Assembly (NCBI RefSeq): GCF_003334785.1
Contig: NZ_QOWV01000003.1
Length of the DNA: 64,000 bases
From: Escherichia coli
GTDB taxonomy: Bacteria > Pseudomonadota > Gammaproteobacteria > Enterobacterales > Enterobacteriaceae
Strand: one strand, 5' to 3'
Of the stretch, positions 21,145 to 30,928 are shown piece by piece. Numbering within the stretch: the first letter of the stretch is position 1; every line of letters begins with the position of its first letter. The notes below the pieces were generated by a model. The model was not told the origin of the DNA. It did not search any database and saw only the letters and a program-made list of their open reading frames with translations. The translations under genes and the position numbers were made by a program.

Positions 21145-22116
21145 TTACTTAGCTGCCTGAATATCAGCCAGCATTGGGGCAAGGGCTGGGTTGTCCTTAG
21201 CGAAGTTTGCGTACATTGGCTGTACTTTCTCGATAAACGGAGCTTTATCTACCTGGTAGACTTTCACGCCCATTTTATCCAGTTTTGCAAATTCTTGTTT
21301 CTCTTCCTCGCTCCACAAGTCTTTCATGTAGCTCATTGATTCTTTAGCTGCTTTTAATATAACTGCCTGATTTTCCTGGCTAAGTTTATCAAACGCAGCA
21401 TTGCTCATCAGAACCACATCGGGAACCATAGTGTGTTCGTCAAGGCTGAAGGATTTTGCCACTTCACCGTGACGCATGGTAGTCAGCGCCATCACGCTGT
21501 TTTCTGCCATATCGACCACACCCTGCTGTAAGGCTGTATACAACTCGCCGTAATCCAGTGGCGTCGGGTTACCGCCCATGACTTTGATCATTTCAACTGC
21601 GCCAGGGCTTGGCTGGACACGGACTTTCATGCCTTTCAGATCGTCTGGTTTCAGTACTGGTTTATTGCCATAGAAACTGCGGGCGCCTCCATCATAAAAA
21701 GTCAGCCCGAAATAACCTTTGCTTTTCGTTGAGTCGAGGATTTTTCTCCCGATATCGCCCTGCATGACCTGATAATAATGATCACGATCGCGGAACAAAT
21801 AAGGCAGGCTAAATAATTTATAGGAATTTTCAAATGCTTCCATTTCTGCCGCATTGGTTTTTACCAGGGGAATAGCGCCAGAACGAATCAGCTCCATTGT
21901 TTCTCGTTGAGTACCCAATGTTCCATTTGGATAAATACGAATAGTAATATCACCGTTAGAGTACTCTTTGCTCTTTTTCGCAAAGAACTCCATCGCTTTA
22001 TGAACAGGATGAGACTTATCCTGATTATGACTCAGTTTTAATGTCACTGCCCAGGACTGGCTTGCGGATAACATAAGAACAGCACCGATAATGCCAGCGG
22101 ATACTTTTATTTTCAT
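21145..22116 (-). CDS. TRAP transporter periplasmic solute-binding subunit (DctP family)
   Basis: 323-aa ORF with N-terminal signal peptide; DctP-like by recognition; last gene of a DctQ-DctM-DctP set. Confidence 0.82.
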   Translation of the reverse strand: MKIKVSAGIIGAVLMLSASQSWAVTLKLSHNQDKSHPVHKAMEFFAKKSKEYSNGDITIRIYPNGTLGTQRETMELIRSGAIPLVKTNAAEMEAFENSYKLFSLPYLFRDRDHYYQVMQGDIGRKILDSTKSKGYFGLTFYDGGARSFYGNKPVLKPDDLKGMKVRVQPSPGAVEMIKVMGGNPTPLDYGELYTALQQGVVDMAENSVMALTTMRHGEVAKSFSLDEHTMVPDVVLMSNAAFDKLSQENQAVILKAAKESMSYMKDLWSEEEKQEFAKLDKMGVKVYQVDKAPFIEKVQPMYANFAKDNPALAPMLADIQAAK

Positions 22117-22168
22117 AGATGTTCCTTTTCTAATAAATATGGCGGCAGGTGCCGCCAGTGAATGCGCA

Positions 22169-23470
22169 TCAGTAGCCCAGTGCTCTTGGCAATGCCATAC
22201 TGATTTGCGGAATATAGGTCACCATTGCCAGCACCAATACCATCACGGCATAGAATGGCAGCATAGGTTTGATAATTTTATTAATCGGTAATTTAGATAC
22301 ACTACAACCGACAAATAACACACTGCCTACAGGCGGAGTACAAATACCGATACACATGTTCAGTACCATGACAATACCAAAGTGAATCGGGTCCATGCCC
22401 AGTTCGGTGACAACCGGTAAAAATATCGGCGTAAAAATCAGTACCGCCGGTGTCATATCCATAAAAGTGCCGATAATCAACAGGATAATATTGATAATAA
22501 GCAGGATTATTATTGGGTTGTCAGAAATAGTGTTAAGCAAATCGAGAATCAGGAAGGGAACGTCAGCGTTTGACATTGCCCATGACATACCCATCGAAGA
22601 ACCAATTAATAACAAGACAATTGCAGTGGTAATAACGGATTCCAGAAATATTTTAGGTAAATCTTTAACTGAGATTTCACGATAAAGAACCAGTGCAAGG
22701 AAAAGGGTATAAATTACTGCAATTGCGGAGGCCTCTGTCGGGGTAAAAATACCACTTAATACACCCCCCATAATTAAAATAATCAGGAAAATACTGGGGA
22801 TAGCCATCCATATCGCAACGCCAGCCTGGCGTAAAGTCGGGCGTTCTGGCTTTGGATAACCGCGACGTACCGCGATAATACCGGCTATTACCATCAGTGC
22901 CAGACCCAGCAAAATTCCCGGAACATAACCCGCCAGGAACAGTGCGGCAATAGAAGTACCACCACTGACCAGTGAATAGACGATTAACGTATTACTTGGT
23001 GGAATAAGCAAACCCGTCGGGGCAGAGGCAACGTTAACCGCAGTACTGAATGCCGGGTCGTAACCCTCTTTAACCTGTTGCGGATGCATGACGCCGCCCA
23101 TCGCAGCCGCCGAAGCCACGGCTGAACCAGAAATTGCCCCGAACAGCATATTGGCGAGAATATTACAGTGGGCAAGTGAGCCTGGCAGACGACCGCCGAG
23201 AATACGGGCAAAGTTGATTAATCGTCGCGCTATTCCTCCATGGTTCATAATGTTGCCAGACAAGATAAAAAATGGGATTGCCAACAACGTAAAACTATCT
23301 AACCCGGAGGCTAACTTTTGGGAAACCACACTCAATGCTGAGTTGAAATCGAGTTGTGTGGAAATTGATGCCAGTGTCGATAAACCAATGGCATAAACAA
23401 TAGGTACACCTAATGCCAACATAAAAAAGAAGGCACCAAATAACACAATAATCGGTAACCAGTAATCCAT
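22169..23470 (-). CDS. TRAP transporter large permease subunit (DctM family)
   Basis: 433-aa highly hydrophobic multi-TM ORF, DctM-like; adjacent to DctQ and DctP. Confidence 0.85.
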   Translation of the reverse strand: MDYWLPIIVLFGAFFFMLALGVPIVYAIGLSTLASISTQLDFNSALSVVSQKLASGLDSFTLLAIPFFILSGNIMNHGGIARRLINFARILGGRLPGSLAHCNILANMLFGAISGSAVASAAAMGGVMHPQQVKEGYDPAFSTAVNVASAPTGLLIPPSNTLIVYSLVSGGTSIAALFLAGYVPGILLGLALMVIAGIIAVRRGYPKPERPTLRQAGVAIWMAIPSIFLIILIMGGVLSGIFTPTEASAIAVIYTLFLALVLYREISVKDLPKIFLESVITTAIVLLLIGSSMGMSWAMSNADVPFLILDLLNTISDNPIIILLIINIILLIIGTFMDMTPAVLIFTPIFLPVVTELGMDPIHFGIVMVLNMCIGICTPPVGSVLFVGCSVSKLPINKIIKPMLPFYAVMVLVLAMVTYIPQISMALPRALGY

Positions 23471-23512
23471 AATTTCTCCATTCCTACTATGGTTGGTTGT
23501 TGTTTGTTATCT

Positions 23513-24013
23513 TTAGAGTGGTTGTTTAAGTTCGGTTAAAACCATATCTATGGTGTATATAATAATAAGTACACCACTAATCGGGATGCTCATATAGATA
23601 TATCCCATTTGCCAGCCTAAAGCGGGCGAGGTCTGACCTGAATCGAATGTATCCATCGTTAATAGCCCACCACCATATACCATAATGATGGTTGCGAAGA
23701 TAATAACGATAATCTGAATACACAAAAATAAATGACGTCGGGCTTTTCCTTTCAGCATCATAGGTAGCAGGTCAATCGCCAGATGCCGGTTTTGCCCTGC
23801 GGTGTATGCCCCACCAAAAAGTCCAAGACAAATAAAGAGCAAACGGCTGAGTTCATCTGTAAAAATACTGGGACTAGTAAATATAAATCGTGCAGCCACC
23901 TGCCACGTCACACATGCCACGATGATCGCCAAAATGGTAATGTTCAATGCTGCAAGCAGAGCATTAATAGATCTAATTATATTTCGCATAGTGATTAACC
24001 TTTGCAATATCAT
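23513..24013 (-). CDS. TRAP transporter small permease subunit (DctQ family)
   Basis: 166-aa hydrophobic ORF between flavoprotein gene and DctM; start ATG overlaps upstream stop (ATGA); an internal ATG at 23989 is an alternative start. Confidence 0.78.
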   Translation of the reverse strand: MILQRLITMRNIIRSINALLAALNITILAIIVACVTWQVAARFIFTSPSIFTDELSRLLFICLGLFGGAYTAGQNRHLAIDLLPMMLKGKARRHLFLCIQIIVIIFATIIMVYGGGLLTMDTFDSGQTSPALGWQMGYIYMSIPISGVLIIIYTIDMVLTELKQPL

Positions 24014-30068: not shown

Positions 30069-30242
30069 ACAATAGCTCTCTTTTTTTGAATATTGTTTTC
30101 TAAGTGACAATTAGCTTGCGACGTGCCGCAAGAAAGATCAACCATCTGGTTGGTTGATATGCGATAGTGATCACAGGACATTTGATAACTTGATGAAAGT
30201 ACAAGTTTTTATCCTTTTTACTGGAGCTTCTAATTAATCGGG

Positions 30243-30260
30243 TTAAGATAGTTATCTTGA
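30243..30260. promoter_or_regulatory. candidate TetR operator: inverted repeat TTAAGATA-GT-TATCTTGA, 20 bp upstream of the TetR start
   Basis: 7/8-matching inverted repeat read from sequence in the divergent SDR/TetR intergenic region; additional palindromes GTGATCAC (30167-30174) and CAACCA...TGGTTG (30139-30156). Confidence 0.35.
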
Positions 30261-30280
30261 AGAGGTCGTGGGGAAGCGTT

Positions 30281-30928
30281 ATGTATCTTGATACCAGCAA
30301 CGTACAGAGCCTGAAGGAAAAGCTGCTGTTATGCGCGGTTAATGAATTTGCCGAATATGGTTATGAAGGGGCCAGGGTCGATAATATTGTTAAGGCTGCG
30401 GGGTGTAGTAAACAGACGGTTTATCATCACTTTGGTAATAAAGAAAATTTATTTATTGAAGTACTGGAATATACCTGGAACGATATTCGACAAAAAGAAA
30501 AGGCCCTTGATTTCTCAGATCTTCCGCCACAAAAAGCCATTGAGAAAATTATTGATTTTACATGGGATTATTATATTGCTAATCCCTGGTTTTTAAAAAT
30601 TGTGCATAGTGAAAATCAAAGTAAAGGTGTGCATTATGCAAAATCACAGCGTCTCTTAGAAATTAACCATGCGCACTTGCAGTTAATGGAATCCTTATTG
30701 GATGAAGGGAAGAAACACAATATTTTTAAGCCAGATATCGACCCATTGCAGGTGAATATTAATATTGCTGCGCTTGGCGGATATTATTTGATCAACCAGC
30801 ATACGCTTGGCCTGGTTTATCATATCAGTATGGTTTCCCCCCAGGCACTGGAAGCCAGACGTAAGGTCATCAAAGAGACAATCCTTAGCTGGCTTTTGGT
30901 TGACCCTTCATCTACCGCGCACGAATAA
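30281..30928 (+). CDS. TetR/AcrR-family transcriptional regulator (full length; likely corresponds to the ytfA locus)
   Basis: 215-aa product from ATG 30281; N-terminal HTH typical of TetR (…[17 protein letters not shown]…); divergent from catabolic operon. Confidence 0.85.

Follow-up and report, generated by a model that had tools for sequence, protein, structure and literature searches.

The interval between rplI and ytfB on the Escherichia coli chromosome probably holds an old, native-looking catabolic operon with AT-rich ends, one formed by a swappable transporter module and the other by a repressor gene. It was studied in a stretch of 64 kb spanning purA to nrdD (contig NZ_QOWV01000003.1 of assembly GCF_003334785.1; the whole stretch is called the window hereafter), in which positions 21145–30928 have rplI as their left and ytfB as their right neighbour, with ends that coincide exactly with gene boundaries. 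This region contains the genes of a TRAP transporter (dctPMQ), five enzyme genes and a divergent gene for a TetR-family regulator, and every reading frame is intact. Several strains, including H3 (NZ_CP028732.1), are 100% identical across the 11.1 kb queried, and the RefSeq annotation of the identical region of strain H3 was used for the genes. We propose that the interval is built of three parts: a native-like core of five enzyme genes, a low-GC distal end (about 21090–24300), composed of dctQMP and the 3′ tail of the adjoining flavoprotein gene, and a low-GC regulator end (30061–30928).

The remaining 54 annotated genes in the window served as the compositional background, with a GC content of 0.521 ± 0.036 and a GC content at third codon positions (GC3) of 0.576 ± 0.064. 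The transporter genes and the TetR gene, which had looked AT-rich by eye in the first-pass annotation, are indeed low outliers against these flanking genes: GC is 0.445 in DctP, 0.445 in DctM, 0.411 in DctQ and 0.395 in TetR (z = −2.1 to −3.5), and GC3 is 0.457, 0.442, 0.396 and 0.398, respectively. Within DctM, the stretch 22400–22700 has a GC content of 0.382. The TRAP block as a whole (21095–24027) has a GC content of 0.438, below all 194 background windows of equal length, and it deviates as well in its dinucleotide signature (delta* 110 versus 47 ± 17), its tetranucleotide signature (r 0.50 versus 0.65 ± 0.05) and its codon bias (B 0.366 versus 0.172 ± 0.034; 0 of 2000 resamples). Resampling at block level was used instead of per-gene values of B, since Karlin's B varies with gene length and short ribosomal genes score high. 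The TetR gene is among the lowest 0.5% of background windows. Codon adaptation was gauged by the frequencies of optimal and rare codons from a standard list; DctQ and TetR have the lowest optimal-codon fractions among the genes examined, and rare codons make up 10.8% of DctQ. A maximal-scoring-segment scan of all 64 kb returned 20981–24260 (score 46.9) and 30061–30840 (score 28.0) as the top AT-rich segments, the maximum score over 200 block shuffles being 22.0. Top-down Jensen–Shannon segmentation of the same 64 kb placed its sole cut at 44 kb and missed the small AT-rich patches.

The five enzyme genes match the background. Their GC contents are 0.523 (FAD-dependent oxidoreductase, the flavoprotein), 0.531 (CoA-transferase), 0.502 (enoyl-CoA hydratase), 0.547 (TIM-barrel protein) and 0.533 (short-chain dehydrogenase/reductase, SDR), with z between −0.5 and +0.7, and their GC3 of 0.50–0.57 is equal to or under the background mean. 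The enzyme block (24028–30110) has a GC content of 0.525 versus 0.518 ± 0.013, a delta* of 35.4 versus 35.0 and a tetranucleotide r of 0.76 versus 0.78 for the background. The flavoprotein and CoA-transferase genes, initially described as GC-rich, are not. The compositional mosaic seen on first reading is thus upheld by the computed GC, GC3, codon and tetranucleotide statistics in its two AT-rich ends, but it has no GC-rich part: the pattern is one of two AT-rich ends around a native-looking core, not an alternation of AT-rich and GC-rich genes.

Low GC might in principle be forced on membrane proteins and on a small regulator by their amino-acid composition, but such a coding artefact is scarcely credible here. 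DctM and DctQ are hydrophobic membrane proteins, and the GC content at second codon positions (GC2) of TetR is very low (0.287), both of which would fit it; the deficit is, however, equally large at synonymous third positions (GC3 0.40–0.46), DctP is periplasmic and yet AT-rich, and the dinucleotide and tetranucleotide signatures are deviant too. Native membrane-protein genes in the window have a GC3 of 0.60–0.69 (ulaA, cycA, ytfF and ytfT, 0.64–0.69), and other regulators (ulaR, ytfH and nsrR) have 0.51–0.63. The artefact is refuted by these GC3 values.

A survey of 5426 complete E. coli genomes showed that the rplI–ytfB interval is polymorphic. The enzymes are present in 3116 of them (57%), the TRAP cassette in 1446 (27%) and a non-homologous MFS permease in 1686. 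Since the two transporter counts add up to 3132, close to the 3116 genomes with enzymes, TRAP and MFS are mutually exclusive alternatives on one operon. In the BL21-like arrangement the order is rplI, MFS gene, enzymes and TetR gene. The cluster around ECD_04073 in E. coli B/BL21 shares its TetR gene and five enzyme genes (96–100% identical from 24300) with the window, but an ACS-family MFS permease replaces dctPQM and the flavoprotein has another tail. TetR is 99.8% identical between locus forms.

The limits of the exchanged segment are sharp. On the left, homology of the TRAP form with the MFS, yjfZ and K-12 forms stops at 21086–21094, directly past the rplI terminator. At the right-hand limit, the MFS forms are homologous again from 24028, at 66–74% identity up to 24299 and at 95–100% from 24300 (100-bp bins). 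GC steps at the same point, from 0.39–0.43 up to 24299 to at least 0.51 from 24300, and the GC step and the homology breakpoint coincide within 100 bp. The low-GC domain therefore extends past the DctQ gene, about 290 bp into the flavoprotein gene, the last 97–98 codons or so of which have a GC3 of 0.25–0.28. At the protein level this tail (about 97 residues) is 60.6% identical between the TRAP and MFS haplotypes and the remainder 99.2%, the divergence starting directly after a conserved GGGSRGARI motif. The tail of the MFS haplotype is equally AT-rich, with a GC3 of 0.276 in both versions. GC3 falls strongly within the tail (−0.15 to −0.25) at the syntenic enteric loci alone, against a mean of −0.026 in 75 distant homologues, and the fall is therefore a property of the local domain and not of the flavoprotein family; an AT-rich tail intrinsic to the whole family is ruled out by the same homologues. 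The low-GC block at the distal end is a haplotype-specific segment (about 21090 to about 24300) comprising the flavoprotein tail and the transporter. Assembly from different sources, as the first-pass annotation had proposed, thus holds for the transporter block, a separate evolutionary unit with sharp breakpoints, and does not hold for the rest of the region, where there is no GC-rich part.

In the proposed mechanism, the distal end would be a replaceable cassette that exists as two ancient, mutually exclusive haplotypes, TRAP and ACS-family MFS, both AT-rich and both probably importing the same class of polyhydroxy-carboxylate. Haplotypes would be exchanged by homologous recombination, with one crossover a short way upstream of the GGGSRGARI codons, where the flavoprotein gene is conserved, and the other in the rplI/terminator flank. 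Non-orthologous displacement of transporters is known from sialic-acid uptake, which is served across bacteria by NanT (MFS), SiaPQM (TRAP) or ABC systems. There, as here, a conserved set of catabolic enzymes is supplied by transporters of unrelated families, the uptake system being the plastic part; the present case differs in that both alternatives are found in one species at one position, with the crossover placed inside the adjoining enzyme gene.

Smaller differences were observed in the shared part, which is otherwise 99–100% identical: relative to BL21-like strains, the CoA-transferase gene (97.9%; 26100–26900) and the TIM-barrel gene (96.1%; 28425–29267) differ in clusters, which suggests further small recombination tracts in the enzyme core. 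In some TRAP-form genomes (strains CUWW10 and 1332KP) IS1 elements interrupt dctP or dctM, and the cassette is thus undergoing inactivation in some lineages. Around 1100 E. coli genomes have short matches of 60–90% to dctP at an unrelated position (about 730–765 kb), which indicates that part of the species may carry a second, distantly related TRAP binding-protein gene elsewhere.

The E. coli genomes without the operon are informative about its history. K-12-type loci are arranged as rplI, yjfZ, a TetR gene without its N-terminus and ytfB, the transporter and the five enzyme genes being absent. In K-12 itself (rplI-yjfZ-ytfA-ytfB, b4203–b4206), the site and the flanks are the same as in the window and ytfA is what remains of the TetR gene on its 3′ side, with 98.5% identity from 30526, whereas yjfZ occupies the slot beside rplI. 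K-12-type loci retain 102 bp of the SDR gene in degenerate form, immediately adjoining the TetR fragment. The K-12-type form is a deletion remnant and not an empty site. The SDR relic (L007:3064–3165, against 29878–29979 of the window) is 81% identical, the adjoining TetR fragment and right flank 98.5% and the left flank about 98%, which suggests that the relic is either an old pseudogene remnant or the remnant of a divergent allele.

The slot beside rplI has other occupants. D72 has the MFS form with yjfZ added, and B2-like strains have a helix-turn-helix (HTH) gene and a frameshifted hipA added beside rplI. All alternative occupants of the slot are AT-rich, with GC contents of 0.47 (MFS), 0.42 (yjfZ), 0.46 (HTH) and 0.45 (hipA). 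yjfZ is found in 2525 of the 5426 genomes (L005:2105–2899 in the yjfZ form) and is absent from the window, where the corresponding space is 21034–21144. The B2-like cargo (L006:2436–4197) consists of the HTH gene and a frameshifted toxin gene of the HipA family, and several O157:H7 strains, among others, have a tnpA/tnpB element of the IS200/IS605 family (IS609-like) adjoining yjfZ. The slot is a small hotspot of insertion and replacement.

The same operon is present outside E. coli. In a scan of one genome per species the flavoprotein family is widespread, and a cluster of the TetR gene and the enzymes lies at the syntenic rplI...ytfB-fklB site in Escherichia whittamii, Escherichia albertii, another Escherichia sp., Entomohabitans and Klebsiella huaxiensis. 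An MFS permease is found at the syntenic locus in E. whittamii, in Escherichia sp. MOD1-EC7003, the contig of which shows only the CoA-transferase, flavoprotein and MFS genes and rplI, and in Entomohabitans teleogrylli. K. huaxiensis has a complete cluster with dctQMP, and L008, a divergent lineage of Escherichia that was deposited under the name E. coli, also carries TRAP at this site, its TRAP genes being about 93% identical to those of the window, like its ytfB and fklB (93–94%). The E. albertii contig breaks off within the flavoprotein gene, before any transporter. Distant clusters use other transporters, either a ShiA-like MHS permease or a different MFS protein plus a Gfo/Idh/MocA dehydrogenase.

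These data bear on whether all 9.8 kb were acquired horizontally as an island, imported fairly recently from donors of differing GC content. We consider this highly improbable. The region is accessory in E. coli, the TRAP block and the TetR gene are compositionally atypical, and the nearest non-enteric relatives of the TRAP genes are found in the lower-GC Vibrionaceae, all of which would be expected of an island. Yet the deviation is limited to 21090–24300 and 30061–30928, the 6-kb enzyme core being native in composition and not GC-rich; the cluster occupies the same site in other Escherichia, Entomohabitans and Klebsiella, with a divergence that parallels that of core genes; and E. coli genomes without the cluster show deletion scars where an island would have left an empty site. 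No tRNA gene was found at the region, no integrase or transposase gene is annotated in it and no phage-type mobility proteins are present; the flanking repeats are only short ones, consistent with chance. There is also no genuine plasmid copy of the cassette: matches of at least 99% occur only in megabase-scale or 373-kb records labelled as E. coli plasmids, which are probably chromosomal or very large replicons, none of them a recognisable mobile vector. The region therefore resembles classical genomic islands in its sporadic distribution within the species and in its low-GC segment with atypical codon usage, and it differs from them in the lack of mobility genes, tRNA and flanking repeats, in its cross-genus synteny and in its mostly native composition. 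The island reading is largely refuted by synteny and deletion scars.

The age of the AT-richness can be judged from the comparison of E. coli with K. huaxiensis. Among conserved residues, identical codons amount to 55–66% in the ula core genes, 50–60% in the CoA-transferase, enoyl-CoA hydratase, TIM-barrel and SDR genes, 46% in the flavoprotein gene, 40–52% in the TRAP genes and 56% in TetR. Synonymous sites are saturated between the two organisms, with no sign of recent exchange, and divergence of this extent rules out a recent transfer between E. coli and Klebsiella. The TRAP and TetR genes are nevertheless equally anomalous in Klebsiella, with a GC3 of 0.43–0.52 and 0.46, respectively, among neighbours of 0.60–0.71. 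The enzymes follow the host, from a GC3 of 0.50–0.57 in E. coli to 0.62–0.71 in Klebsiella, and the AT-rich parts shift about half as far. In all syntenic enteric loci the GC3 of TetR lies 0.13–0.21 under that of the enzymes.

The amelioration model of genomic islands, reportedly due to Lawrence and Ochman, has composition converge on that of the host with time. The TRAP genes, with a GC3 of 0.40–0.46 in E. coli and 0.43–0.52 in Klebsiella, show no such convergence after saturated divergence, and the differential amelioration suggested by the first-pass annotation is not visible. Because the TRAP and TetR genes are AT-rich in Klebsiella too despite saturation, their composition reflects neither recent transfer nor visible amelioration; and because TetR is co-inherited with the enzymes throughout, its AT-richness is no evidence of a separate recent source. 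The AT-richness would then predate the split between Escherichia and Klebsiella and have remained unconverged on the host, which would make it a stable property of the module and not the mark of a recent import. Its persistence may reflect a low-GC source pool, or AT drift in segments that are unable to recombine between haplotypes.

The second of these possibilities can be taken further. Low GC may have arisen in place, haplotype-specific segments being unable to recombine with the alternative haplotype, so that GC-biased gene conversion would be reduced or selection less effective and the universal AT-biased mutation pressure would carry them towards AT. The low GC of TetR would have causes peculiar to that gene, for instance weak expression or the AT-richness of the regulatory end. 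Several observations agree with this account: everything that is haplotype-specific is AT-rich (TRAP, MFS, yjfZ, the hipBA-like genes and both flavoprotein tails), everything common to the haplotypes sits at the genome average, the GC step falls within 100 bp of the homology breakpoint, the strong tail effect is limited to the enteric locus and is not shared by the 75 distant homologues, and between E. coli and Klebsiella the composition of the AT-rich parts moves about half as much as that of the enzymes. A low-GC donor pool, however, explains AT-rich accessory DNA equally well. Moreover, TetR is common to all haplotypes and recombines freely, as its 99.8% identity shows, yet it is the most AT-rich gene, so suppressed recombination cannot explain both ends. 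We regard an origin in place as possible, though rather doubtful as an explanation of the whole pattern, and favour a native operon with a swappable transporter module and an AT-rich repressor gene.

Some observations weigh against this preferred view. The background consists of 54 genes from one 64-kb neighbourhood and not of the whole genome, and the codon bias of the enzyme block is marginally raised (p about 0.065). The flavoprotein tails are about equally divergent everywhere, at 57% between the TRAP forms of E. coli and Klebsiella and 61% between TRAP and MFS; no donor is identifiable from such equal divergence, and the tail may simply be fast-evolving. In distant clusters, the orthology of which is uncertain, the GC3 of TetR is just 0–0.10 below that of the flavoprotein gene, which leaves room for an ancient separate origin of the regulator end. 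The nearest non-enteric relatives of the TRAP genes (Vibrio, Photobacterium and Psychromonas) are only 55–61% identical, and a low-GC source of these genes is suggested. Finally, each transporter type is found in one outgroup genus and both are found within Escherichia, so that either could be the ancestral one.

The individual features are arranged as follows. The left core flank is rplI (20584–21033, plus strand), the last gene of the rpsF-priB-rpsR-rplI operon, which is 98–99.9% identical in all locus forms. It is followed by a terminator region (21055–21094) with an A-run before and a T-run after the hairpin, which is therefore probably bidirectional; the terminator scan places the hairpin itself, the terminator of the rpsF–rplI operon, at 21055–21081, with a 12-bp stem that includes 7 G-C pairs. 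The transporter genes lie on the minus strand and encode side by side, in intact frames, the P, Q and M components of a tripartite DctP-type TRAP transporter: the substrate-binding protein DctP (21145–22116; TIGR00787, 246.5 bits, cut-off 175), the large permease DctM (22169–23470; TIGR00786, 458 bits, cut-off 268) and the small permease DctQ (23513–23989 with the RefSeq start, or up to 24013 with an alternative start), the 166-residue Klebsiella orthologue of which carries PF04290. The alternative dctQ start is an ATG at 24013 that overlaps the stop codon of the flavoprotein gene (ATGA) and gives a DctQ of 166 residues, the length called in Klebsiella; its use would mean that translation of the cassette is coupled to that of the flavoprotein tail. 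Between dctM and dctP, a GC-rich hairpin on the coding strand (22140–22157; 7-bp stem, 6 G-C pairs) could serve as an attenuator within the operon or help to stabilise the mRNA.

The enzyme genes are also on the minus strand. The FAD-dependent oxidoreductase (24010–26091; 693 residues; PF00890) is a flavoprotein of the fumarate-reductase/L-aspartate-oxidase type; its last 97 codons or so (24010–24300; GC 0.415) are the haplotype-specific part that lies in the low-GC domain and holds the right breakpoint, and the body of the gene (24301–26091) is native-like in composition. It is preceded in the direction of transcription by a fused family-I CoA-transferase (26088–27629; annotated as acyl-CoA:acetate/3-ketoacid CoA transferase), a protein of the enoyl-CoA hydratase/isomerase family (27639–28415), a xylose-isomerase-like TIM-barrel protein (28425–29267; AP_endonuc_2) and the SDR (29277–30068; NF009386, 417 bits), the first gene of the operon. 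The second AT-rich segment begins at the promoter region (30069–30280) from which the operon and the TetR gene diverge. The TetR/AcrR-family regulator (30281–30928, plus strand) is the full-length form of the K-12 pseudogene ytfA, and its 3′ end is overlapped by 17 nt by the 3′ end of ytfB (30912–31550, minus strand), the right core flank. Elsewhere in the window, the segment scan ranked third and fourth two AT-rich segments with scores that exceed nearly all shuffles, 4481–5100 (GC 0.353), which covers yjfI (itself 0.386) and its upstream region, and 14081–14620 (GC 0.367), which is the divergent regulatory region of ulaG and ulaA.

Taken together, the gene order points to a vertically inherited catabolic operon under a TetR repressor, which would be read from the SDR through the TIM-barrel protein, the enoyl-CoA hydratase, the CoA-transferase and the flavoprotein to the uptake system. 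The regulator has the features of its family: NCBIfam TetR-type matches cover residues 9–155, its gene and the SDR gene are transcribed divergently, and both TetR_N and TetR_C_29 are present in the Klebsiella orthologue (87% identical). An inverted-repeat scan of the divergent SDR/TetR intergenic region found a palindrome, ATCAACCA-N6-TGGTTGAT, at 30137–30158, which is a candidate operator for TetR. The CoA-transferase orthologue of BL21, ECD_04073, has been described as missing in K-12 and as showing no expression in five conditions (PMC6150544), a silence that fits the predicted repression by TetR.

As regards the substrate, the closest solved relatives of DctP are 4ovr, 4x8r and 4n8y. Of these, 4X8R binds glucuronate and 4N8Y galacturonate (PMC11668362). 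Both match DctP over nearly full length (233–242 bits), although the similarity is moderate, and the CoA-dependent enzymes encoded here mismatch the known hexuronate pathways. The MFS permease that replaces TRAP is a member of the D-galactonate-transporter (ACS) subfamily, and the closest solved relatives of the TIM-barrel protein, 3qc0 and 3ju2, are without an assigned function. With moderate to low confidence, we infer from these resemblances that the substrate may be a polyhydroxy-carboxylate, a sugar acid or a quinate- or shikimate-like acid, which would be activated by the CoA-transferase and then processed by the hydratase, the SDR, the TIM-barrel enzyme and the flavoprotein. Literature searches found no characterisation of the locus or pathway: those for ytfA and yjfZ returned a marker paper and a TetR survey only, those for the B-strain locus tags one remark, on ECD_04073, and those for the rplI/ytfB/TRAP arrangement, for PDB entries 3JU2, 3QC0 and 7VPF and for the tag SMc04130 nothing relevant.

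The finding is one of ordinary modular evolution of an accessory operon, in which an origin as an island from different sources fits the transporter cassette only; judged by its composition and nothing else, the wrong element would have been called an island. It also has consequences for K-12 and for strain detection. The K-12 pseudogene ytfA can now be understood as what was left when an operon under TetR control was deleted. For water monitoring by quantitative PCR, yjfZ has been put forward as a conserved signature of all E. coli and Shigella (PMC11057252); as it sits in the variable slot beside rplI, an assay based on it would miss TRAP-form and BL21-like strains.

The occurrence of TRAP and MFS on one enzyme set provides a clean natural experiment for an uncharacterised and apparently silent pathway, and it is of some interest that this apparently ancient dimorphism has its boundary inside a gene and a non-host composition that persists across genera. 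TRAP and MFS might even form a long-lived dimorphism that crosses species boundaries, maintained at one position across Escherichia and other Enterobacteriaceae, with a non-host composition older than the split of the genera; we put this forward as a tentative idea that is more likely wrong than right. If true, low GC at this locus would report suppressed recombination or a module-specific equilibrium and would be no clock for horizontal transfer.

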